Below, one piece after another: positions 44,343 to 55,986 of a stretch of 64,000 nt of DNA. The DNA is from Candidatus Kapaibacterium sp. Its GTDB lineage: Bacteria > Bacteroidota > Ignavibacteria > Kapaibacteriales > UBA2268. Each line of letters opens with the position of its first letter. Position 1 is the first letter of the stretch. The notes under the pieces are model-generated. The model ran no database searches, had not been told where the DNA came from, and saw only the letters and a program-made list of their open reading frames with translations. The translations under genes and the position numbers were made by a program. The stretch covers positions 32,001 through 96,000 of the forward strand of contig OY761611.1 of assembly GCA_963664875.1 (NCBI GenBank). Direction: 5' to 3'.

Positions 44343-45041
44343 ATGAACTTTGGTTTGATAGCAGCAGGAGAGGGTACAAGGTTGAAAGCCGGCGGCTGGG
44401 ATAAACCAAAAGGTTTAGCTCAAATTAACGGGGAACCCCTTATCAAAAGGTTTTTAGACCTTGCAAATTATTACAATGCAGAAAAAATATGTATCATAGT
44501 GAACGAAGAGTCGCCCGAGCTTGTTGAATATATCAACTCTTATGAAAGCTCTTCAGCAATTCACCTCAAAGTAAAATCTACTCCGAGTTCTTTGCACAGC
44601 TTCTACGAAATATCCAAGTTTTCAGAATCAGAATCTATATTCCTGTTTACAGTAGATACTGTTTTTGATTCAAAAGAATTCGATAAGTTTTATGAGTTTT
44701 CTCTCTACACTCAATACGACGGAGTATGGGGGATAAGCAATTTTATAGATGACGAAAAGCCTCTTTACGTCAGTCTCAAAGAAAATAATCTGATTGACGG
44801 TTTTCATGACGAAGGCGAGTTTGAGTATGTTACCGGTGGATTCTATTATATGAAACCTACTCTTCACAAACATCTCAAATCAGCTGTCGAATCCGGCATG
44901 GAAAGAATGAGAAATTTCCAAAGATTTTTGATTGAATTAAATCATGATATTTACGGATATAATTTTTCTAAAATTGTTGATGTAGATCATGTCTCAGATA
45001 TAGCAAAAGCTGAAGCGTTTTTAAAAGAAAGAAACAAGTAA
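44343..45041 (+). CDS. NTP-transferase (probable inositol-phosphate cytidylyltransferase)
   Basis: IAAGEGTRL...PKGL; VDVDHVSDI; clustered with ino1. Confidence 0.8.
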   Translation: MNFGLIAAGEGTRLKAGGWDKPKGLAQINGEPLIKRFLDLANYYNAEKICIIVNEESPELVEYINSYESSSAIHLKVKSTPSSLHSFYEISKFSESESIFLFTVDTVFDSKEFDKFYEFSLYTQYDGVWGISNFIDDEKPLYVSLKENNLIDGFHDEGEFEYVTGGFYYMKPTLHKHLKSAVESGMERMRNFQRFLIELNHDIYGYNFSKIVDVDHVSDIAKAEAFLKERNK

Positions 45042-45069: not shown

Positions 45070-45531
45070 ATGAGAAATATCATAATATTTGCCTTGATAA
45101 TTTTTTTCCTGCCGGGCTTCTTTTGGGCTGAAGGTAAATCAGCCGACAAAAAAAAAGGTACTTTGCTTGTCAAAGTTACAGGTCTGAGGACTAATAAAGG
45201 CTATGTGGTTTGCCATCTGTTTAATGATGCAGACGGTTATCCGCTAAAATCAAAAAAAGCCTTAGTTTTTCAAGATGATTTGGACATCAAAGACAGCACA
45301 GCTTCTTTTGTTTTTACTGATTTGCCTTATGGCAAATATGCTTTTACTACTCATCATGATGAGAACGCTAATCATAAAATGGATAAGACTTGGCTTGGAT
45401 TGCCTGCTGAGGGCTGGGCTTGCTCTAATAATGTTATGGGTATATTAGGAGTGGGACCACCAAGTTTCAAAGAAGCACATTTTGTAGTCAATAAAGATAC
45501 GGTTGTACAACAAATCAAAATGAATTATTAA
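45070..45531 (+). CDS. DUF2141 family exported protein
   Basis: GKYAFTTHHDEN.NHKMDKTWLGLPAEGWACSNN...GPPSFKEA. Confidence 0.85.
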   Translation: MRNIIIFALIIFFLPGFFWAEGKSADKKKGTLLVKVTGLRTNKGYVVCHLFNDADGYPLKSKKALVFQDDLDIKDSTASFVFTDLPYGKYAFTTHHDENANHKMDKTWLGLPAEGWACSNNVMGILGVGPPSFKEAHFVVNKDTVVQQIKMNY

Positions 45532-45550: not shown

Positions 45551-46438
45551 ATGCAATTGGAATTTGCTGCTATCAAAAGGGCAAAAAAGTTTTCTCCTAA
45601 TCATATAGAAAATGATGCTCTTATACTGACTCAGACTGCTGAAGAACTAATCAGACTTGGCGCGAAGGTTAAGTTTTACGACGAAGAAATGCTTTTTGGC
45701 GACAGCATAAAAGAAGATTTTATATTTTCTATGTCAAGAGAAGTAGATGTAATCAAAAAACTTAAACAACTACAAAAGCAGGGAAAAGTAATCATCAATT
45801 CGCCGAAAGCTGTAAAAAACTGTTTCCGCGAAAATGTAACTACCAAACTATTAGTGTATGGAATTCCATATCCGGATAGTGTAATTATCAAAACTAACGA
45901 TTTTGATCCGATTACTCTTTCCAAATTTAACGGTTCCAAAGTATGGATAAAACGAGATAAACATATTCAGCATAGTGAAGATAGGACTCTTGCCACATGC
46001 GATGCCGAAAGAGATAATATTGTAAGAGAGTTTGGAAGAAGAGGTATCAAAAAAGCAATTGTGCAGGAACATTTGATTGGTAATGAAGTTAAGTTTTACG
46101 GTGTTCGTGGCTCTGAGTTTTTCCATTGGTATTACTCACACAAAAACATTCCGAATATCCAACTTGACGAAGAGAGATTTATCACCTTAGCTCGCAGAGC
46201 TGCAGAGACTTTGAAAGTAGATGTTTATGGTGGCGATGCTCTTATCTTACCTGACGGTACTATTTATATCATTGATTTCAATGATTGGCCAAGCTTTGCT
46301 CCTTGCAGAAATGAAGCTGCCCAAGCAATCGCTAAAATGATTTACCGTAAGGCACAGTTCAAAATTCTTACTAATGAGACTTCTTTCGTTTCGGAAGAGA
46401 CTCAGGAAGTAGTGGAAATAGAAACAAACTTCAACTAA
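45551..46438 (+). CDS. ATP-grasp protein with ITPK1-like motifs
   Basis: IINSPKAV, GIPYP, VQEHLIGNEVKFYGV, YGGD, IIDFNDWPSF. Confidence 0.65.
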   Translation: MQLEFAAIKRAKKFSPNHIENDALILTQTAEELIRLGAKVKFYDEEMLFGDSIKEDFIFSMSREVDVIKKLKQLQKQGKVIINSPKAVKNCFRENVTTKLLVYGIPYPDSVIIKTNDFDPITLSKFNGSKVWIKRDKHIQHSEDRTLATCDAERDNIVREFGRRGIKKAIVQEHLIGNEVKFYGVRGSEFFHWYYSHKNIPNIQLDEERFITLARRAAETLKVDVYGGDALILPDGTIYIIDFNDWPSFAPCRNEAAQAIAKMIYRKAQFKILTNETSFVSEETQEVVEIETNFN

Positions 46439-46447
46439 TTTGGATGA

Positions 46448-47356
46448 ATGATGGCTGAGATGAATGTAGCGGCTACTTTGAAATCAAAAGATACTGAAGA
46501 GACTCTTGATATCCTTTTTTATAGACCGCTTGGATTTTTGCTTGCTAAGTTTTGTGCCAAAACAGGTATTACTCCTAATACTGTAACTTGGACAAGCATC
46601 GTGCTTGGCGGTTTTGCAGGTCATGCCTTTTACTATTCTGATTTGAATATCAATATAATCGGAATGTTGGTTTTGATTTTTGCAAATCTGCTTGATTCTA
46701 CAGACGGACAGCTCGCCCGCATGACAAATCAATGCACACGTATGGGTAGATTCTTAGATGGTTTTGGTGGTAATATCTGGTTTTTGAGCATATATATCCA
46801 CTTAGGACTCAGAATGATCAATGAAGGCTACGAGCCTTGGATTTTTGGTTTTGTCATAGTTACAGGGCTATTCCATTCGTTCCAGGCTGCTATGGCTGAT
46901 TATTACAGAAACGCTCATTTATTTTTTATTCAGGGCAAAAGTGGTTCTGAAGTTGACAGTTCAAAAAAATTGGAAGAACAGTATCTGGCTGCTTCATGGA
47001 AAAGAGAATTTTGGACTAAGACATTTTTGTTGCTTTACAAGAATTACACGGTTGAGCAGGAAATACTATCCAAAAACCTTCAGAAGTTATATGCAAAAAT
47101 AGCTGAAAAATATCCGGAGGGCACGCCTGAGTGGCTTGTTGCTAACTTCAGAAAAGGAAGCAAGCCTCTGATGAAATATACAAACATATTGACAACTAAC
47201 ACACGAATGTGGGCTTTGTTTTTCTCTATGTTTTTTGGTGAGGTGATTTGGTACTTGGTGTTCGAAGTTACTGTATTGAATATACTTCTTATTCAAATGG
47301 TAATCAGACAGGAAAGATTGAGCAAAAAGATGATATTGGAAATTGAGCAGGCATAA
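46448..47356 (+). CDS. CDP-alcohol phosphatidyltransferase
   Basis: ITPNTVT; DSTDGQLAR...GRFLD. Confidence 0.92.
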   Translation: MMAEMNVAATLKSKDTEETLDILFYRPLGFLLAKFCAKTGITPNTVTWTSIVLGGFAGHAFYYSDLNINIIGMLVLIFANLLDSTDGQLARMTNQCTRMGRFLDGFGGNIWFLSIYIHLGLRMINEGYEPWIFGFVIVTGLFHSFQAAMADYYRNAHLFFIQGKSGSEVDSSKKLEEQYLAASWKREFWTKTFLLLYKNYTVEQEILSKNLQKLYAKIAEKYPEGTPEWLVANFRKGSKPLMKYTNILTTNTRMWALFFSMFFGEVIWYLVFEVTVLNILLIQMVIRQERLSKKMILEIEQA

Positions 47357-48388
47357 GTGAAGAAGCAAAATACATATAAAACCATATTTATGATTGTTGG
47401 TTTGGCGATTTTCTCTTATCTCGTTTATAATTTTGGGATAGAGAGAATAATGCAGAATCTGCAGGAAACCGGCTGGTGGTTTGCAGCGATTGTTGCTACA
47501 TGGGGATTTGTTTATCTGTTCAACGCTTTCTCATGGTCAAGAATTGTAAAGGCTAAAGAAAACAAGATTCCTTTCAGTCAGGTTTTTGGTTTGACAGTTA
47601 GCGGCTTTTCTTTGAATTATATTACTCCTTTTGTAGGACTTGGCGGCGAGCCATATCGCATAATGGCCTATAAAGAATATATAGGAACAGAAAAGTCAGT
47701 CTCATCTGTAATTATTTTTACCTTGATGCACATGATTAGTCATGTTGTGTTTTGGGTATTCAGTATGGCTTGGGTTATTTTATTCTTGGAAATGCCTATG
47801 CACTACTGGCTAATTATGGCAGTAATTTTTATAGTGCTGCTTCTATTGCTTTCGGTTTATATCAAAGCAATGAAATCCGGATTTTTCAATACATTAAAAT
47901 GGGTGGCATCCAAGCTACCTATTAAGAAATTGAATGAAGTAATAGAAACTCATCACGACAAACTTGACGAAGCAGATAGATTTATCCGTGACTTTTACAA
48001 TACTCGTAAAAAAGATTTTTACTTAGTTGTCTTCTACGAATTTGTTTCGAGAGTGATTAGCTCATTGGAATACTACTTTATTCTAATGGCTGTAGGAGTC
48101 AATATCGGGATATTTGAAGCGATATTTATCAATGCAGGTATGTCTTTGGTAATCAATCTTACATTTTTCATTCCGTTCCAGCTTGGGGCGCGTGAAGGTT
48201 CGCTTGTGTTTGTACATGGTATGTTAGGAATCGATTCTTCGCTTGGCATATATGCGGGGCTTGTGAATCGAGTTAGAGAATTTTTCTGGATTTTAATGGG
48301 TTTAACTTTTATACAGCTTTCCGGAAGAAAGACCAAATATAAAGAAGAAAGAATGAATGAATTAGTAGAGGCGGACAATGCAAACTAA
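47357..48388 (+). CDS. Lysylphosphatidylglycerol-synthase TM-like (UPF0104) flippase
   Basis: NYITPFVGLGGEPYR; IPFQLGAREG; multiple TM segments. Confidence 0.88.
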   Translation: MKKQNTYKTIFMIVGLAIFSYLVYNFGIERIMQNLQETGWWFAAIVATWGFVYLFNAFSWSRIVKAKENKIPFSQVFGLTVSGFSLNYITPFVGLGGEPYRIMAYKEYIGTEKSVSSVIIFTLMHMISHVVFWVFSMAWVILFLEMPMHYWLIMAVIFIVLLLLLSVYIKAMKSGFFNTLKWVASKLPIKKLNEVIETHHDKLDEADRFIRDFYNTRKKDFYLVVFYEFVSRVISSLEYYFILMAVGVNIGIFEAIFINAGMSLVINLTFFIPFQLGAREGSLVFVHGMLGIDSSLGIYAGLVNRVREFFWILMGLTFIQLSGRKTKYKEERMNELVEADNAN

Positions 48389-49085
48389 AGCGATTTTATT
48401 TGATTTTGGCGGTACTATAGATACAAATGGTGTCCACTGGAGCGAAAAGTTTTGGGATACTTACGAAAGATGTAATATCTCAATCGAAAAAAAGGATTTT
48501 GAATCTGCGTATGTAAGCACGGAAAAATTGCTTGGTAGAGACAAAAGAATCAAACCGGAGATGAGCTTTTACACTATTATAAGAGAGAAACTGCTAATCC
48601 ATTTATATTTTTTGATTCAGAACAGCAAACTACCTCATACAACCAAAGTGGATGAGCTTGCTGATAAGTTAGCAGATGATTGCTATGCTAATATCAAAAA
48701 TGTAATAGAAAATGCAAATCTCACTATGGCAAAGCTGAAGCATAAATACACTCTCGGAGTTGTTTCTAATTTTTACGGTAATATTGATAAAGTACTGAAA
48801 GAATTTGGCTTGCATGAACTTTACGAGCTCATCGTTGATTCGACGATTGTCGGGATACGCAAGCCCGATCCGGAAATTTACAGACTTGCCATAGATAAAC
48901 TTGGGTTTACAGCAAGTGATGTCGCAATAGTTGGTGATTCATATACAAATGATATGGAGCCGGGAAGAACGCTTGGCTGCAAAACAGTTTGGCTCAAAGG
49001 CAGATCATGGAAAGAGGAGACTCAAACAGAGGCTGCCGACCACATAATTACAAAATTTGAAGAGCTTGAAAATCTTTTTCTCTAA
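48378..49085 (+). CDS. HAD-family hydrolase
   Basis: FDFGGTID, VVSN, RKPDP, VGDSYTND. Confidence 0.9.
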   Translation: MQTKAILFDFGGTIDTNGVHWSEKFWDTYERCNISIEKKDFESAYVSTEKLLGRDKRIKPEMSFYTIIREKLLIHLYFLIQNSKLPHTTKVDELADKLADDCYANIKNVIENANLTMAKLKHKYTLGVVSNFYGNIDKVLKEFGLHELYELIVDSTIVGIRKPDPEIYRLAIDKLGFTASDVAIVGDSYTNDMEPGRTLGCKTVWLKGRSWKEETQTEAADHIITKFEELENLFL

Positions 49086-49157
49086 AGAGATTTTGGGGAT
49101 TAATATAAATAATTGCATAAATAGCAAACTAACTAAATATTCTATTTGAGGTTACAA

Positions 49158-50474
49158 ATGGGAAAATATCAAATCAAAGATGCCAATGGAAAACTTGGGG
49201 TATTGGTCGTAGGTATGAACGGTGCGGTAGCATCTACTTTTATTGCCGGTGTTTTATCAATTCGTAAAGGTTTGACTAAACCTATCGGTTCTGTTTCGCA
49301 GATGCAAACTATCAGAATCGGTAAAAGAATTGATAATAACTTCCCACTTATTAAAGATTTTGCTCCTTTAGCAAAATTGGAAGACATCGTATTTGGTGGT
49401 TGGGATATCGAAAATAAAGATATGTACGAAGCGACTTCCTCAAACGGTGTTTTGACAGAAAAAGATGTTGATGCTGTTAAAGATGAATTGCAACAGTTGC
49501 ACTGTATGCCTGCTGTTTTCGAGCAACGCTATGTGCTAAAACTTAATGGTGAGTTCGTAAAAAAAGGCGAAACTAAAGAAGATCTTGCTAATCAGCTTAG
49601 AGAAGATATTCGCAAATTTAAGCAAGAAAATGGTATTGACCGTATGGTAATGGTATGGTGCGGTTCTACTGAAGTTTATATGCAGATAAGCGATGTACAC
49701 CAAACTCTTGCAGCTTTTGAGCAAGGTTTGAAAGATAACCATGCCGGGATCTCTCCTTCTATGATTTATGCTTATGCTGCATTGAAAGAAGGCGTGCCTT
49801 ATGTAAACGGTGCTCCAAACTTGACTGTAGATATGCCTGCTATGATGGAACTTGCAGATTTGACTAAAATGCCGATTTCCGGTAAAGACTTCAAAACAGG
49901 TCAAACTCTAATCAAAACTGTGATTTCTCCTATGCTTAAAGCAAGAATGATTGGTCTTCGTGGCTGGTTTTCTACTAATATTCTTGGCAACAGAGACGGT
50001 GAAGTATTGGACGATCCTGAATCATTCAAAACAAAAGAGCAATCTAAACTATCTGTTATCGATTCTATTATTCAACCGGAATTGTATCCTGACTTATATA
50101 AAGATTACTACCATAAAGTCAGAATAAATTACTATCCGCCAAAAGGCGACAACAAAGAAGGTTGGGATCAAATTGATATATTCGGCTGGATGGGCTACCC
50201 AATGGAGTTGAAAATCAACTTCCTTTGCCGTGACTCTATCTTAGCTGCACCGATTGCACTTGATTTGGTTCTTTTCACTGATCTTGCAATGAGAGCAGGA
50301 ATGTACGGCATACAGGAATGGTTGTCATTCTACTTGAAGAGCCCAATGCACAGACCAAATGTTGTGCCTGAAAATGACCTCTTTATCCAGTTAATCAAAC
50401 TTAAAAACACTTTGAGATTGATGATGGGAGAAGAAGTAGTTACTCACGTTGAAGAGCAGGCTGACGAAATCTAA
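49158..50474 (+). CDS. ino1: myo-inositol-1-phosphate synthase
   Basis: FGGWD, WCGSTE, NGAP, GKDFKTGQT, NILGNRDG, RDSILAAP, LSFYLKSP; GAGGT before ATG at 49158. Confidence 0.95.
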   Translation: MGKYQIKDANGKLGVLVVGMNGAVASTFIAGVLSIRKGLTKPIGSVSQMQTIRIGKRIDNNFPLIKDFAPLAKLEDIVFGGWDIENKDMYEATSSNGVLTEKDVDAVKDELQQLHCMPAVFEQRYVLKLNGEFVKKGETKEDLANQLREDIRKFKQENGIDRMVMVWCGSTEVYMQISDVHQTLAAFEQGLKDNHAGISPSMIYAYAALKEGVPYVNGAPNLTVDMPAMMELADLTKMPISGKDFKTGQTLIKTVISPMLKARMIGLRGWFSTNILGNRDGEVLDDPESFKTKEQSKLSVIDSIIQPELYPDLYKDYYHKVRINYYPPKGDNKEGWDQIDIFGWMGYPMELKINFLCRDSILAAPIALDLVLFTDLAMRAGMYGIQEWLSFYLKSPMHRPNVVPENDLFIQLIKLKNTLRLMMGEEVVTHVEEQADEI

Positions 50475-50694: not shown

Positions 50695-50819
50695 CACTGA
50701 GCGAGCGTAGCGAGTCGAAGTGTGATTCTCATCCGTAGGCTTACTTTCTCTCAAGCTTAGGGTACTTTGTTCTCAACCGTAGTGTTTTTTTCTTCTCAAC
50801 CGTAGGGTTAACCCTACGG
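50695..50819. repeat. REP-like cluster: cactgagcg...gtcgaagtg unit, four 22-23-nt tandem repeats, perfect 20-bp palindrome
   Basis: tctcaWccgtagg-like units start at 50727, 50749, 50771, 50794; ccgtagggtt/aaccctacgg at 50800-50819. Confidence 0.7.
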
Positions 50820-50907: not shown

Positions 50908-52290
50908 ATGAAACAAAAAGCAATGACAAGAGGTATTATCTATATAGTTCTATTAGCACTTTTTCAAGTGTCGGTAAGTTTTTCTGAGGAGCTTGATTTA
51001 CAAACTTTCTTAGAAAAGGCTATTGAACATAAAGGAATTGAAAAAAGGTTTGAGCTGCAAAAGCAAAAATCTGAAATGACTAAAGATGAAGTGCAAAGCC
51101 TTAAAATTTTGCCTGATGTGTCCTTGGAGCTTAGAGGTGGCATTGTACCTGAAGCGAGAGGAAATGTAAACTACTCACCCGACGAAGCAACAGATTTGGA
51201 AGGGTGGGGGCCGTTCTTTCAAAGCGAGATTAAATTTGTGCAACCGCTTTATACATTTGGTAGAATAAGCAATGCTGAAAGTGGAGCTGATTTTTTGATT
51301 CAGTCAGAAACTGCAAAGTATGAGTCTGAGAAAGCAGAATTGAAAAAGATTCTGATTGATTTATATTTTTCGACAGCTGCTGCATACAAAGCAAGCCTTA
51401 TAGCCGGCGAAGTAGAATCAGGAATGTCAAAGTTGATGGAAGAAATCGAAAAAGAACTTGAGAAAGATGATTCAGAGATTGACGACGGCGACGTCCTCGA
51501 AGCTAAAAGCTTTAGATATGTTGTTGATGAAATAGTTGAAAATAGCAAAAAGAACAAAAAATCAGGAATTTATGCAGTTAACCTTGCTTCGGGAATTGAA
51601 CTTACTGACACTGCTAAAGTAGAAAATGCAATTCCTGAGTTTGATTTTGGATTAATATCCTTTCAAAATATATGGGATTATGCTGAAAATAACAACAAGC
51701 AGATACAGCAGATAGCTTACGGTTTGAAAGCAATGGATAGTAAAATTGAGATGAGTAATTCTGAAAAGTATCCTATGCTATACCTTGCAGGTGGAATAAT
51801 GTACGGAATTGCTCCTAATAGAGATGATCAGAAAAATCCATTTGTTTATGATCCTTTCAATTATCTCACTGCCGGAGCTTTTGTAGGGATGAAATGGAAT
51901 ATGAATCTTTTCAGAACAGGCATAGCAGAAAAGAAAGATGAACTATCTAAAGCAATTTTAAGCGAAGAAGAGCAACTTCTAATAAGTCAGAAAAAAGCAG
52001 AGCTTTATGATTTGTATTTAGATGTGCAAAAAGACTATAAGCTTTTAGAATCTGTTGATAAATCAGAAAAAGACGCAAGAGCCTGGCTGACTATGAGCTT
52101 TGATAATTGGGAAATGGGAATAGGTGACCCAGAAAAACTAATCAAAGCATATAAGACATACTTTCAGCTAAAAGGCCAAAACGTGCAAAAACAGTTAGAT
52201 GTGCAAAAGAAACTTACAAAACTTGCAAATGAAATAGGAAATATTGAGCTAATAATCAAATGGGTGAAAAATGGAAAAGTTATTCTCTAA
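50908..52290 (+). CDS. TolC-family outer membrane efflux protein
   Basis: Signal peptide; LPDVSL, QPLYTFG, YPMLYL, W.MNLF repeat pattern. Confidence 0.88.
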   Translation: MKQKAMTRGIIYIVLLALFQVSVSFSEELDLQTFLEKAIEHKGIEKRFELQKQKSEMTKDEVQSLKILPDVSLELRGGIVPEARGNVNYSPDEATDLEGWGPFFQSEIKFVQPLYTFGRISNAESGADFLIQSETAKYESEKAELKKILIDLYFSTAAAYKASLIAGEVESGMSKLMEEIEKELEKDDSEIDDGDVLEAKSFRYVVDEIVENSKKNKKSGIYAVNLASGIELTDTAKVENAIPEFDFGLISFQNIWDYAENNNKQIQQIAYGLKAMDSKIEMSNSEKYPMLYLAGGIMYGIAPNRDDQKNPFVYDPFNYLTAGAFVGMKWNMNLFRTGIAEKKDELSKAILSEEEQLLISQKKAELYDLYLDVQKDYKLLESVDKSEKDARAWLTMSFDNWEMGIGDPEKLIKAYKTYFQLKGQNVQKQLDVQKKLTKLANEIGNIELIIKWVKNGKVIL

Positions 52291-52864
52291 AATCTCGACA
52301 ACATTGTTGCTTTTAGCTGTTCTAGCTATTAGTGCTTATGCTGCAGACAGCCCAATGGATGTTGTAAAAAAATCCAACGATAAAGTATCTGCTATCAATG
52401 CAAAAAGTTCGAAACTCGACGATAAAGCAAAAAAACAGATGCTGGATGTGATTGGCTCAGTTACCAGTTGGTCTGAAATCAGCGGAGAAGTTGCATCAAA
52501 ACTGAGAGGTCTAACACCACAACAGCAAAAAGAATTTAAAGAAAAATTTGAAGAATTGCTCAGGATATCTTCTGTTAATAAATTAGGCAGATATAGAGCT
52601 GACGGATTCGAATATGTAGAAGAAAAAATAGACGGAGACAAAGCAACTGTCAAAACTTTGGCACTCTACAAAAAAGAGAAAGTAGAGCTTGTCTATGAAC
52701 TCAAAAAAATTGCCGGTAAATGGATGATAGTAAATTATATAGTTGATGGAGTGGATACTATCAGAAACTATCAAAAGCAATTTTCTAGGCTTCTTAAAAA
52801 GAAAGACTTCAACGGAATTATCGAAGTGCTTGACAAAAACATCCAAGAATCTAAAAGCGAATAA
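52271..52864 (+). CDS. MlaC/Ttg2D (HpnM-like) periplasmic lipid-binding protein
   Basis: Signal peptide; LTPQQQKEFKEKF; WMIVNYIVDGVDTIRNYQKQF. Confidence 0.85.
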   Translation: MEKLFSKISTTLLLLAVLAISAYAADSPMDVVKKSNDKVSAINAKSSKLDDKAKKQMLDVIGSVTSWSEISGEVASKLRGLTPQQQKEFKEKFEELLRISSVNKLGRYRADGFEYVEEKIDGDKATVKTLALYKKEKVELVYELKKIAGKWMIVNYIVDGVDTIRNYQKQFSRLLKKKDFNGIIEVLDKNIQESKSE

Positions 52865-52866
52865 TC

Positions 52867-55245
52867 ATGAAAAAAATATATCAGAAGATAATTGATTATA
52901 TAATTGGTATATCAGTCAGAAAGCCATGGTTGATGCTCGGATTTGTTATTCTTATAACTGTACCAGCCGCTTATTTGCTGAAGGATATTAAAGTAGATAC
53001 TAATCTTATCAAGCTCCTTCCAAAGCATGCAAAAGCTGCAGTAGCCACTCGCGAGTTGGAAGAAATGGTTGGAGACGGGGGACACTTTATTGTTTTATTT
53101 GAAGGAGACAATAGAGAGAGCCTGATTAAAGCAGTAGAATATACTGCTACCGAAATGAAAAAAATTGATGAGCTCCAAGACGTTCATTATAAATGGCCTA
53201 CTGAGTTTTTGCAGAAATACAGATATTCTCTTTTGCCAACCGAATATTTGGACAAAATGTATGAACAGCTAATCCAATGGGAAGCTAAAGTCAATCCTTT
53301 TGTCGATAATATGCTGGTTGAAGAAAAGAAAGAAATGACTCACGGCGACAAAGAAGACGAGCAGGATCTAAAAATACTAATCCAACAATATCAGCACATG
53401 ACAGAGTATCACGAAAGTGCTGACGGAAAGATTTTTGGAATTTTGGCTCCAACTGCCAAAGGCGTTACGAATATTGGTGCTATAAAAAAAATCAAAGAGC
53501 AAATTAAAGCTATATCGGACGAGGCATCAAAAAAATACGGTGTATGGTCAGGAATTACAGGCAATCACCAAAATAAACTGAATGAATATGATATTATCAT
53601 GTTTGATTTGAATCAGTCATCTATTATTGCCGGGATTCTGATTATTCTTGTTCTTCTTATTAGCTATCGAGCCATTTCACCGATTTTTGTGACTATCTTG
53701 CCGCTAATAATAGGCTTGGTGTGGGCATTCGCTTTAGTGCCACATTATGTAGGCCCGCTTAATCTGATAACTGCATTTTTACTTTTAATCTTATTTGGTA
53801 TGGGTATAGATTATGCTATACACATAGTAAAAAGATTTCAGCTCGAATCCAATAAAACATCGCTCGAAGAAGCACTTCGCGAGACATACCATTCCACAGG
53901 TGTGGCGGTTGGACTTTCAGGTCTGACCACGGGTATCTCTCTAAGTATATTGGCTTTATCTGATTTTCGAGGTTTTTCAGAATTTGGAATAATCAGTGCC
54001 TTAGCCATCTTTATGGTACTAATGGCAATGTACTTGGCTTTGCCCGTCTTTATCGTACTTTTTGCCAGATTTAAAGGTATGCACAAAATGCCTATGGTCA
54101 GGAAACGAGTGTTCCTTCCAAATAAAGCTGCAACTGCAATTATAAGTGTTTTTGTGCTTGCTTCTATGCTGTATGCCGCCTTTAACCTGACTTTTGACTA
54201 CAATCTTGCCAATATGAACTTTGATAATCAAAAAATAGTGAATGTCGAAGAACTCAAACAGAAGCAGGGTAAGGTATATTCTAACTCTATGGGAGTAGCT
54301 GCCATTTTGCTTGCTCCTTCCGTTGAGGAAGTAGATCACTTAAAGCAGCAACTTTATGATGCAAAAAGTAAAGACAGCTCAAGCCTGATTGGCAGAATCC
54401 GTTCTATTAGGGACTATGCACCAAGTGAAGCAGATTTTGAAGAGAAACTGTTTTTAATTGAAGATATCAAAGATCAGGTATCAGGCAAGTGGACTCAGCG
54501 AATCGAAGACGCAGATCTTAAATCCATGATTGCTGATTTTATTGCATGGGAGCCACCAACTGCTCCGCCTACTATAGAAGAAATACCAAATATCATAAAA
54601 GCCAATTACGTTAGTCGCAATGGTACAGGTCATTTTCTTGTAACAGTAAATCCGAGTGAGGAAAGAAAAGACGGACGTAATGCTATGGCTTTTACTGATG
54701 ATTTATACTCAGTCAGTATGGATAAGTCTGTAAAAGGGCCAATAGGAGAGACAGTAGTTTTCGCTGAGGTACTGAAACTTGTTACAAGTGAAAGCTGGTG
54801 GATTGCTCTTGCAACATTTGCAGGAGTTGTGATTTTGATATTTCTAAATAATCACTCAGTTAAAAGAACTTTAGTTGTTCTTGTACCTTTGGTCGCTGGG
54901 ATGATGCTTACATTTGGAATTTTTGCACTTGCCGGATTTAAGCTTACTTTCTTTAATATGGTTGTAATTCCTGCACTCCTTGGCATGGGGGTAGATGGAG
55001 GGATACATTATGTACAAAGATGGTTTGAAGTAAATCGCGATACAGATGCTACACAAAAAGAGCTTTTCGAGCCGCTCTCTTTGGCGATTGTTACAACAAT
55101 GCTCGGTTATTCGGGAATGATGTTTGCAAATCATTCCGGTATCAGCTCAATTGGTAATTTTGCTGTTATCGGTTTGGGGTTGATTTGGTTTGCTACATTA
55201 GTATTTTTACCGGGAATTTTAAAAATGTTTGAACGCAAAAACTAA
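52867..55245 (+). CDS. MMPL/RND-family lipid transporter
   Basis: Two repeats with GMGIDYAIH / GMGVDGGIH, SGLTT, FRGFSEFG. Confidence 0.92.
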   Translation: MKKIYQKIIDYIIGISVRKPWLMLGFVILITVPAAYLLKDIKVDTNLIKLLPKHAKAAVATRELEEMVGDGGHFIVLFEGDNRESLIKAVEYTATEMKKIDELQDVHYKWPTEFLQKYRYSLLPTEYLDKMYEQLIQWEAKVNPFVDNMLVEEKKEMTHGDKEDEQDLKILIQQYQHMTEYHESADGKIFGILAPTAKGVTNIGAIKKIKEQIKAISDEASKKYGVWSGITGNHQNKLNEYDIIMFDLNQSSIIAGILIILVLLISYRAISPIFVTILPLIIGLVWAFALVPHYVGPLNLITAFLLLILFGMGIDYAIHIVKRFQLESNKTSLEEALRETYHSTGVAVGLSGLTTGISLSILALSDFRGFSEFGIISALAIFMVLMAMYLALPVFIVLFARFKGMHKMPMVRKRVFLPNKAATAIISVFVLASMLYAAFNLTFDYNLANMNFDNQKIVNVEELKQKQGKVYSNSMGVAAILLAPSVEEVDHLKQQLYDAKSKDSSSLIGRIRSIRDYAPSEADFEEKLFLIEDIKDQVSGKWTQRIEDADLKSMIADFIAWEPPTAPPTIEEIPNIIKANYVSRNGTGHFLVTVNPSEERKDGRNAMAFTDDLYSVSMDKSVKGPIGETVVFAEVLKLVTSESWWIALATFAGVVILIFLNNHSVKRTLVVLVPLVAGMMLTFGIFALAGFKLTFFNMVVIPALLGMGVDGGIHYVQRWFEVNRDTDATQKELFEPLSLAIVTTMLGYSGMMFANHSGISSIGNFAVIGLGLIWFATLVFLPGILKMFERKN

Positions 55246-55263
55246 AAATAAGTGGTTGGTGTT

Positions 55264-55986
55264 ATGGGTCGTAAACCAAATACAGAAGTTAAAGAAAGAA
55301 TACTCAATACTGCAATTACATTGATCGCAGAGAGGGGATACAATGCAGTTGGAGTAAGAGAGATAGCAAAAAACGCAGATGTGTCTATCTCCATGATATC
55401 TTACTATTTTAACGGAAAGATGGGGATTTTGAAAGAAATCCTTAATATGTTTTTTGATAAATATTTGCAAATGCTTGAGGATACGGTTGATAACGAACTG
55501 ACACCAAACGACAATTTGCAAAATCTTTTTGTCAATATTTCTAAACTAATTTCTGAAAATCATGATATTTGTAAGATAGTGTTTTTGGCTATTCCGCACG
55601 ATAATCAAGAGCTTCAGGAGTTTAAGTTAGAGAAAATCCCATGCCTTATCAATCCTTCTCTGAAATTGTATCAGTCTCTAGGGTTCGATATTGAAGATAA
55701 GGTTAGGTTTAGTATCGTCGGACCTACAATTTCTCATATGCTTTTTTCTCACTTTTTCAATAAACCAATAATGAAAGAAGTTTTGGGATATGACGTTGAT
55801 TTAAGCACAAAAAATATCTATACTGAAACTATGGTTGATTTGTTCCTCGACGGTATGAATGGGGTGATTAAAAAACAAAGAGCTGAGAAAAAACAAGACT
55901 TAAAAGAAGAGTTGAAAGTAAACGAAGAATTGTGGCAAGGGAAAACAGCTCTACAAGTAGAAAAGGCTAAAGAAAGCATAGTATAA
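55264..55986 (+). CDS. TetR/AcrR-family regulator
   Basis: KERILNTAITLIAERGYNAVGVREIAKNADVSISMISYYFNGK. Confidence 0.93.
   Translation: MGRKPNTEVKERILNTAITLIAERGYNAVGVREIAKNADVSISMISYYFNGKMGILKEILNMFFDKYLQMLEDTVDNELTPNDNLQNLFVNISKLISENHDICKIVFLAIPHDNQELQEFKLEKIPCLINPSLKLYQSLGFDIEDKVRFSIVGPTISHMLFSHFFNKPIMKEVLGYDVDLSTKNIYTETMVDLFLDGMNGVIKKQRAEKKQDLKEELKVNEELWQGKTALQVEKAKESIV

Follow-up and report, generated by a model that had tools for sequence, protein, structure and literature searches.

An orphan ATP-grasp protein with ITPK-like catalytic motifs in the inositol-lipid operon of Bacteroidota, a candidate head-group kinase

The window analysed here, a stretch of 64,000 nucleotides, comes from the 3.83-Mb single-contig genome of Candidatus Kapaibacterium sp., a member of the Bacteroidota (contig OY761611.1, positions 32,001 to 96,000; G000:C1:32001-96000 in our numbering). 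The listing of its open reading frames (ORFs) holds, at 45551-46438 on the + strand, an ATG-initiated ORF of 295 aa that encodes an ATP-grasp protein. The gene is single-copy in this genome, and is the third in a tightly packed + strand operon (intergenic gaps of -11 to 60 nt) that ends with the gene for myo-inositol-phosphate synthase (MIPS, also ino1). We show herein that the protein belongs to a large orphan clade whose genes accompany an inositol-lipid cassette, and that its catalytic motifs are, by sequence, closest to those of the ITPK inositol-phosphate kinases. Most likely, it is a soluble enzyme that serves specifically in the synthesis of inositol lipids by the CDP-inositol route. 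The features of the operon are as follows.

44343..45041, +, nucleotidyltransferase (NTP transferase), candidate CTP:inositol-phosphate cytidylyltransferase (IPCT-like), 232 aa; PF12804, E 5.4e-8
45070..45531, +, DUF2141 protein with a hydrophobic N-terminus, 153 aa; PF09912, E 5.6e-29; an accessory insert outside the conserved core
45551..46438, +, orphan ATP-grasp enzyme, 295 aa; core residues 1-270, then an acidic, low-confidence tail
46448..47356, +, CDP-alcohol phosphotransferase, membrane head-group transferase, 302 aa; PF01066, E 7.1e-12
47357..48388, +, flippase-like membrane protein (LPG_synthase_TM / HpnL-like), 343 aa; PF03706, E 2.3e-34
48378..49085, +, HAD-IA hydrolase, candidate phosphatase, 235 aa; PF13419 and PF00702, E about 5e-19
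49146..50474, +, MIPS, 442 aa; PF07994, E 3e-103; PF01658, E 5.9e-33
50800..50819, +, terminator-like hairpin past MIPS, possible operon end; 8-bp stem with 6 G-C pairs and a T-rich tail; a consensus match only

The terminator scan was at chance level (5 sites found vs 3.7 expected), as was the promoter scan (19 promoter-like sites vs 21.6 expected). The ORF at 45551-46438 is a real gene and not a chance ORF, since it has more than 7179 homologs in a 90%-identity protein collection and 943 representatives at 50% identity (both at E<=1e-3), and gives a confident AlphaFold2 model. Its translation contains VQEHLIGNEVKFYGV, YGGD and IIDFNDWPSF; the ORF, these three motifs and the ino1 cluster had all been reported in an earlier reading of the sequence alone (hereafter the sequence-only reading), and all are present.

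The protein represents a large clade of ATP-grasp proteins without a Pfam or NCBIfam assignment. A Pfam scan of the window protein found nothing significant (ATP-grasp_3 at E 0.063), and the NCBIfam models rimK_fam, MptN and LysX matched weakly over the N-terminal domain, far under their cut-offs. By motif scan, at least 596 species genomes (596/599 matched) contain a confirmed relative. In the source records, homologs are named either "hypothetical protein" or "RimK-type ligase-like ATP-grasp enzyme", and a search of the ESM Atlas returned unnamed "hypothetical protein" clusters only, plus one cluster with RimK on 16% of its members. AlphaFold2, run on an alignment of 116 whole family sequences (A1), gave a three-domain model with a mean pLDDT of 94.1 and a pTM of 0.88, in which the acidic tail past about residue 270 is uncertain; no membrane segment is present. 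The weak sequence matches and the confident model with its ATP-grasp structural matches bear out the ATP-grasp assignment that the sequence-only reading had made.

Nine positions are invariant in A1 (R10, D22, W132, K134, G177, Y183, G227, N244 and P247), and the near-invariant ones include S15, P16, N83, R93, D144, H174, K181, D229, D242, D245, W246, S248 and F249. Among the motif residues, Y183, G227, N244 and P247 occur in 116/116 sequences, K181 and D229 in 115/116, and D242 in 114/116, with Glu never found at this last position. K134, K181, D229, D242 and N244 are candidate ATP/metal residues, of which we take D229, D242 and N244 to be the Mg ligands, as in ATP-grasp enzymes generally. 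Particular to the family are the invariant or near-invariant R10, D22, R93, W132, D144, H174, D245 and W246.

Searches of the PDB with the single sequence, whole or catalytic half, returned chance matches only (e.g. thioredoxin reductase, E 0.07-0.2), so profiles were needed. With a profile of the catalytic half (A2; central and C-terminal domains of 31 sequences, from 30 of the 80 related loci described below plus the window), the only solved proteins under E 0.01 were ITPKs, with ITPK4 at 2.6e-4 and human ITPK1 (four distinct sequences) at 5.9e-3. Entamoeba ITPK1 (0.63) and PsnB (1.4) were matched more weakly, and RimK was absent. The G-G-D ... I-D-x-N-D-W-P-S-F of the family falls opposite F-G-x-D ... 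D-x-N-x-x-P-S/G-F/Y in the ITPKs. The metal-binding motif reads D-x-N in ITPK4 and in both the human and the Entamoeba ITPK1, whereas RimK and PsnB have E-x-N there, and so the contrast that the sequence-only reading had drawn between these two groups holds in computed alignments. The K-F-Y strand of the family (Lys 181) aligns with F-K-F-Y of ITPK4, the sole ITPK aligned across that position and hence the only one with which this Lys is compared, while RimK and PsnB have D-I-R and D-V-R. The order of motifs expected of an ITPK, G-x-D followed by D-x-N-x-x-P with Asp, is found throughout the family at the counts given above for D229, D242 and N244. By sequence, then, it is the ITPKs to which the catalytic motifs of the orphan protein are closest.

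Compared with the ITPK family as a whole (human ITPK1, Entamoeba ITPK1 and Arabidopsis ITPK4; PF05770/PF17927), the orphan protein shares the ATP-grasp fold, the G-x-D ... D-x-N-x-x-P motif with Asp, the Lys of K-F/V-Y/F, and a tie to the inositol 3-phosphate (Ins3P) made by MIPS. It differs in its N-terminal domain, which is nearer to RimK, LysX and PsnB, and in its genomic role, which is probably lipid head-group activation rather than signalling by inositol phosphates (InsPn). A further difference concerns the lid. The lid, or catalytic specificity element, of human ITPK1 is given as residues 214-256 (PMC11927698), and ITPK lids comprise roughly 30-40 residues. The alignment with ITPK4 needs an ITPK4 insertion of about 30 residues at this place, where the model of the orphan protein has an 11-residue connection (residues 196-206); the lid segment appears to be missing from the family.

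Several of the comparisons weigh against a kinase of ITPK type. The ITPK matches span only about 47-96 residues, and their E-values are modest. With the whole-protein A1 profile, PsnB was matched at 1.7e-8, mostly through the N-terminal domain, and RimK at 4.5e-6; the same search matched ITPK4 at 2e-6 (C-terminal 96 profile positions), Entamoeba ITPK1 at 3.6e-4 and human ITPK1 at 5.4e-4. Foldseek against the PDB placed D-Ala-D-Ala ligases, ArgX/LysX, PsnB, RimK and DcsG in the lead for the full model (E 9e-15 to 6e-13, TM 0.61-0.72), and Ddl, PurK, synapsin, ArgX, RimK and PsnB for a model of the catalytic half (pLDDT 89.0), with no ITPK among the matches listed (to rank 49 for the full and rank 50 for the half model). 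Per-member Pfam matches over the 116 sequences are weak and split (ATPgrasp_ST 15, RimK 13, Ins134_P3_kin 7). The Ins134_P3_kin model, PF05770, had no match to the window protein at E<=1, which falls short of its gathering threshold; the best of the seven weak matches had an E of 0.0036, and a fused relative, P0265, scored 17.6 bits against a cut-off of 23. Membership in the ITPK1 family was rejected on these grounds, namely the PF05770 threshold, the precedence of ligases in Foldseek and the apparent absence of the lid. Thus, of the ITPK1-like kinase proposed by the sequence-only reading, what stands is that the catalytic half resembles ITPKs most among solved proteins by sequence, and what falls is the family membership; the structural comparison with ITPK1 and RimK/LysX, which it had called for, put ligases first.

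A RimK assignment fares no better. PF08443 did not match the window protein and matched 13/116 relatives weakly (best E 9.6e-6), TIGR00768 reached 27.1 bits (cut-off 143.4) in a match confined to the N-terminal domain, and the protein has neither the E-x-N nor the D-x-R strand of RimK. With the RimK/LysX/ArgX/PsnB/D-Ala-D-Ala ligases the orphan protein has in common the overall three-domain architecture, the size, the Foldseek similarity (TM 0.6-0.72) and the pre-ATP-grasp sequence of the N-terminal domain. It differs from RimK and PsnB in having D-x-N and Lys where they have E-x-N and Arg, and RimK is lost from the catalytic-half search; it also differs from RimK/LysX/Ddl-type ligases in having a conserved neighbourhood without a carrier protein, a peptide gene or a gene supplying a carboxylate. 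The evidence on ITPK versus ligase is split.

The genomic surroundings were compared, by tblastn with the window proteins, in the 80 best related loci, taken with flanks of up to 8 kb, many of which are cut by contig ends. A CDP-alcohol transferase neighbours the ATP-grasp gene in 77 of these, an NTP transferase in 69, a HAD hydrolase in 69 and MIPS, within 8 kb, in 56. The NTP transferase ends no more than 300 nt upstream of the ATP-grasp gene in 53/68 loci, and the CDP-alcohol transferase starts no more than 300 nt downstream in 59/77. Rarer neighbours are the flippase-like protein (25 loci), DUF2141 (three; L002, L040 and L078), and OEP, MlaC and MMPL proteins (one each). This synteny, which we regard as obligate, is accompanied by co-occurrence in a sample of 201 genomes taken evenly across the phylum: the ATP-grasp gene was found in 11 and MIPS in 40, all 11 lie within the 40, and the ATP-grasp gene was found in none of the 161 MIPS-less genomes. 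This co-occurrence is a count and not a statistical test, because the sampled genomes are related to one another. The linkage to ino1, one of the checks named by the sequence-only reading, is thereby upheld. A close ortholog of the CDP-alcohol transferase (E<1e-60) is encoded by 14 genomes, and in 11 of them the ATP-grasp gene is present too; the orthologs of the other three (L086-L088) stand alone, with no NTP transferase, ATP-grasp or HAD gene nearby. These three loci, and four with MIPS and no ATP-grasp gene (L082-L085), were considered as cassettes that had lost genes, and rejected as such, since they have no NTP transferase or HAD gene nearby and are arranged differently.

In addition to adjacency, gene fusions tie the ATP-grasp protein to the nucleotidyltransferase. 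Homologs of at least 518 aa number 759 at E<=1e-3, and among the best 120 of these, 115 carry a nucleotidyltransferase domain (three of them also CDP-OH_P_transf), three are PAS-HisKA-HATPase proteins and two have no Pfam domain. Ten longer homologs that were scanned comprised six fusions of NTP transferase with ATP-grasp, one triple fusion, one fusion of ATP-grasp with CDP-OH, one histidine-kinase (HisK) fusion and one protein without a domain; the CDP-alcohol transferase is fused behind the ATP-grasp part in P0219, P0221, P0284 and P0322. In P0323, P0325, P0337, P0353 and P0369, BLASTP assigned residues 1-248 to the NTP transferase and residues 254-552 to the ATP-grasp part. These five represent clusters of 1608, 7587, 525, 3273 and 97 members, respectively, one of which holds Prevotella sp. 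records. Since BLASTP places both domains in representatives of very large clusters, the "NTP transferase" of many Bacteroidales is, by its sequence, a bifunctional protein whose second half is this ATP-grasp. The 80 closest loci contained no fusion, those detected being in more distant branches.

Two side observations concern these longer proteins. In P0208, P0363 and P0383 (691-692 aa), PAS-HisKA-HATPase_c sensor-kinase domains are fused to a C-terminal copy of the ATP-grasp. The 90%-identity clusters of P0323, P0325 and P0337 also list members of 302-304 aa, and the three of these that were compared, P0412, P0395 and P0426, are CDP-alcohol transferase orthologs rather than ATP-grasp proteins; the 302-304 aa members were presumably joined to the fusion clusters through triple-fusion or read-through gene calls, and cluster names can mislead.

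An alternative inositol-lipid cluster was previously inferred for B. vulgatus and Prevotella by Heaver et al. (2022; PMC9246714), who placed an NTP transferase, a CDP-alcohol phosphatidyltransferase and a HAD gene near MIPS, with an LPG-synthase-like neighbour, and stated the functions to be unconfirmed. They predicted this route for dominant human gut species including B. vulgatus, B. dorei and many Prevotella. The window operon, in which NTP transferase, CDP-alcohol transferase and HAD all stand beside MIPS, is this cluster. The gene set around the ATP-grasp gene is the same, and bearers of the cluster make inositol-phosphoceramide. The difference is that the published scheme names three enzymes, whereas the present analysis places the ATP-grasp in the core as well, and finds it within the "NTP transferase" polypeptide itself in Prevotella-type clusters. 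Neither ATP-grasp nor RimK is mentioned in the searched text of PMC9246714, the figures and supplements of which may show the gene unlabelled; the literature searched in full text holds no description of this ATP-grasp protein or of a bacterial ATP-grasp inositol kinase.

Further matches of the other operon products were as follows. The only full-length NCBIfam match of the nucleotidyltransferase was the IPCT/DIPPS model NF041135 (residues 5-227, E 1.2e-8), far under the cut-off, and its closest solved relative was 4jd0 (E 2.6e-6), which we take to be the Thermotoga inositol-1-phosphate cytidylyltransferase, the database name being just "Nucleotidyl transferase". For the CDP-alcohol transferase, the best NCBIfam match, a weak one, was archaetidylinositol-phosphate synthase (E 9.6e-15), and the closest solved relatives were AF2299 (4o6m, E 5.9e-5) and IPCT/DIPPS (4mnd, E 1.1e-3). 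The flippase-like protein matched TIGR03476 (HpnL) at E 2.3e-34, under the model cut-off, and the matches of the HAD hydrolase, to nucleotidase, pyrophosphatase and phosphoglycolate phosphatase models, were all sub-threshold.

The lipid products reported for such clusters, all from species other than the window organism, are plain. B. vulgatus and P. veroralis, which have the alternative cluster only, make plain phosphoinositol (PI)-dihydroceramide, and S. spiritivorum and strain HMA12 make plain ceramide phosphorylinositol; the cassette occurs in other Sphingobacterium species (L039, L048, L049 and L058). The sequence-only reading had envisaged soluble InsPn or phosphoinositide-like lipids as the output. 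The fusions and the synteny point instead to head-group activation, and genera with the cassette make plain inositol-phosphoceramide.

Variants of the cassette bear on the position of the ATP-grasp step. Two Runella loci (L027 and L047) have the NTP transferase, ATP-grasp, CDP-alcohol transferase, flippase-like protein and HAD, and MIPS was not found anywhere in either genome. In Runella salmonicolor (L047, 1177-13259), a PfkB kinase occupies the usual position of MIPS, and L027 has a 90%-identical homolog in the same place. The closest solved relative of this PfkB is the myo-inositol kinase TM0415 (E 4.5e-27), followed by the Thermococcus inositol 3-kinase (8.6e-6); TM0415 is a PPi-dependent myo-inositol kinase making inositol 1-phosphate (Ins1P), and the Thermococcus enzyme makes Ins3P (PMC5931981). 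Because Runella keeps both the ATP-grasp and the HAD gene with PfkB in the MIPS slot, the arrangement suggests that the ATP-grasp protein acts after a source of inositol phosphate (InsP). The ribokinase-family myo-inositol kinases (MI3K of Thermococcus kodakarensis and TM0415 of Thermotoga maritima) resemble the proposed enzyme in being kinases that supply inositol monophosphate, and differ in their unrelated PfkB fold; since PfkB and ATP-grasp co-exist in Runella, the two are not simple functional equivalents. The idea that the ATP-grasp protein is a free-inositol kinase replacing MIPS is weakened by the same genomes and by the PfkB ortholog of MIPS-less Tannerella sp. (see below). This argument is soft, because that ortholog also occurs in a genome with MIPS, and has housekeeping neighbours. 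The L047 cluster also holds a CarboxypepD_reg/DUF5686 protein and a DUF4833 protein.

In Tannerella sp. (L059), a permease gene is followed by NTP transferase, ATP-grasp, CDP-alcohol transferase and HAD; MIPS was not found in this genome, the completeness of which is not established, and a 53%-identical PfkB ortholog lies elsewhere in it. T. forsythia is described as making inositol-phosphodihydroceramides solely from exogenous inositol, and no candidate for an inositol kinase is recognised in that account (PMC4587543). The Asp-Al_Ex/TrkA_C permease gene, which overlaps the nucleotidyltransferase start in this MIPS-less cassette (L059:5532-10488), may encode the inositol importer that has been considered for T. 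forsythia.

Other Ignavibacteria (L016:3872-15196, L094 and L095) have an expanded cassette consisting of NTP transferase, MlaE, MlaF, MlaD, ATP-grasp, class-III aminotransferase, CDP-alcohol transferase, GFO/IDH/MocA oxidoreductase, flippase-like protein, HAD and MIPS, and two of the genomes of this class (G101 and G173) have two tandem ATP-grasp paralogs. Of the 80 loci, 11 have the aminotransferase and 10 the oxidoreductase. Judging from the gene content, cassettes with both suggest an aminated cyclitol head group.

We infer that the ATP-grasp protein is a kinase rather than a ligase, and with it the substrate and the order of steps set out below. The chances appear to us about even that it phosphorylates inositol or an inositol phosphate and so feeds the cytidylyltransferase, the substrate of which must be a phosphate monoester. 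A head-group kinase is favoured because the ATP/metal positions are kept, the protein is soluble and joined to the cytidylyltransferase, no mass is left on the lipid, and ITPK1 and VIH offer a precedent. In the synthesis of the Campylobacter phosphoramidate, Cj1418 acts first and Cj1416 follows. Cj1415-Cj1418 are described as together making CDP-phosphoramidate, with Cj1418 phosphorylating L-glutamine, which provides a precedent for a kinase preceding a cytidylyltransferase. Both ITPK1 and VIH/PPIP5K, which are ATP-grasp inositol-phosphate kinases, act on inositol phosphates (PMC7618535). The sequence-only reading had stated that ITPK1 can act on the Ins3P made by MIPS, and this is borne out by the report that ITPK1 phosphorylates Ins3P (made from glucose-6-phosphate) and Ins1P (PMC6900528).

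Two forms of this kinase reading can be drawn. In the first, which we put forward tentatively, the ATP-grasp protein would phosphorylate InsP, from MIPS or from the PfkB inositol kinase, to an inositol bisphosphate, and the cytidylyltransferase would turn this into CDP-inositol-phosphate. The CDP-alcohol transferase would then move the group to a lipid alcohol (ceramide or glycerolipid), giving lipid-P-Ins-P, from which the HAD hydrolase would strip the extra phosphate, leaving a plain inositol-phospholipid. This is the more likely of the two forms because an InsP source, MIPS or PfkB, co-exists with the gene and the HAD is co-conserved; and since the products are plain inositol-phosphoceramides, a transient phosphate fits better than an added residue. 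In the second form, which we consider rather doubtful, the protein would phosphorylate a free cyclitol at the position needed by the cytidylyltransferase. It suits the aminated variants, since the oxidoreductase and the aminotransferase most naturally act on the unphosphorylated ring.

Some of the findings count against these schemes. Rhodothermus marinus, by the route of Jorge et al. (2015) as related by Megson et al. (2015; PMC4587543), makes an inositol ether lipid from CDP-inositol with MIPS, IPCT and a synthase of the CDP-alcohol family. Its operon differs from the present one in containing MIPS, IPCT and the transferase only, and thus a kinase is not chemically required. The best sub-threshold models of the HAD are nucleotidase and pyrophosphatase, so that removal of a head-group phosphate is not a necessary role for it. 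The PfkB ortholog occurs also in a MIPS-bearing genome, and its neighbours in two Bacteroidales genomes are uninformative (housekeeping).

The rival that survives best, which we nonetheless regard as unlikely, is that the protein is an ATP-grasp ligase of RimK/LysX/Ddl/PsnB type, joining an acyl-phosphate-activated carboxylate to an amine or hydroxyl of the head group, of a precursor or of a protein. It accords with the Foldseek top matches, all of them ligases, with PsnB as the best solved match of the A1 profile and RimK behind it, with the weak rimK_fam, MptN and LysX matches, and with the "RimK-type ligase-like" names of homologs. The class-III aminotransferase that adjoins the ATP-grasp gene in 11/80 loci would supply an amine nucleophile, and some genomes have tandem ATP-grasp paralogs. 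However, the ATP-grasp gene is kept in cassettes without the aminotransferase, such as those of the window and of Bacteroidales, no conserved neighbour supplies a carboxylate, and the lipids of alternative-cluster species and of Sphingobacterium are plain, without an added residue. Moreover, the systematic fusion partner is a nucleotidyltransferase, and by sequence the catalytic half matches only ITPKs, with D-x-N and Lys against the E-x-N and Arg of the two nearest ligases.

Less probable still is a kinase acting at the level of the lipid, phosphorylating either the finished inositol lipid, with the HAD turning it over, or a lipid alcohol such as ceramide, to give a CDP-lipid donor for an Ins3P acceptor. 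The best sub-threshold models of the CDP-alcohol transferase, archaetidylinositol-phosphate and PIP synthases, have InsP as the acceptor. A phosphorylated lipid intermediate would also fit the presence of the HAD in 69/80 loci and the HAD-transferase fusion reported in P. veroralis (PMC9246714), and sphingolipid genes, coding for serine palmitoyltransferase (Spt), a GNAT-like protein and an SDR, adjoin the Runella cassette, with Spt/GNAT homologs near four further loci. Yet the ATP-grasp protein lacks a membrane segment and ends in an acidic tail modelled with low confidence, and the nucleotidyltransferase belongs with the soluble enzymes of sugar-phosphate or IPCT type. In the consulted text of the lipid papers on cassette-bearing and related species, no stable phosphorylated inositol lipid is reported. 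Since the family sits in differing lipid contexts, beside Mla transporters and in aminated variants, a constant head group is a better candidate for the substrate than a variable lipid. That the protein is a non-catalytic partner, scaffolding the cytidylyltransferase or gating it by sensing ATP, would accord with its place fused to or beside the nucleotidyltransferase and with the few sensor-kinase fusions, and is very improbable given that all canonical ATP/metal positions are (near-)invariant over 116 diverse members, the pattern of an active enzyme.

It is thus plausible that the protein acts as an ITPK-like kinase in activation of the inositol-lipid head group. The ATP-grasp is probably an overlooked kinase step of an inositol-lipid pathway that is widespread among Bacteroidota of gut and soil, and a fourth conserved component, by sequence a candidate catalytic one, that the three-enzyme scheme of the alternative route leaves out. 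Kinases of inositol phosphates are regarded as typical of eukaryotes, with an extension to Asgard archaea (PMC6900528). It is possible, though we hold this with less than even confidence, that the protein founds a bacterial family of ITPK-like inositol-phosphate kinases, which would convert the MIPS product to a bisphosphate on the way to a CDP-inositol-phosphate head group later trimmed by the HAD. If this holds, inositol-phosphate kinase chemistry would be routine in the membrane-lipid synthesis of abundant gut Bacteroidales, a "phosphate walk" would set the phosphodiester stereochemistry, and the eukaryotic ITPK family would have a plausible root among prokaryotes.

Several genes lie outside this system or touch it at a distance. 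Directly 3' of the operon, the window (50908-55986) contains an OEP outer-membrane channel, an MlaC lipid-binding protein, an MMPL/RND transporter and a TetR regulator; this group was rejected as part of the system, as it recurs in 1/80 related loci (L078, Kapaibacterium). The sphingolipid genes upstream of the Runella cassette comprise Spt (NF047600, 739 bits vs a cut-off of 640), the GNAT-like gene and the SDR. Judged by homologs elsewhere in its genome, sphingolipid synthesis is possible in the window organism as well. An Spt-like alpha-oxoamine synthase lies at G000:C1:2648628-2649785, with CFB-type serine palmitoyltransferase as its best model (485 bits vs a cut-off of 640), and a GNAT-like homolog at G000:C1:1521217-1522335 is 45% identical to the gene of the Runella sphingolipid cluster.

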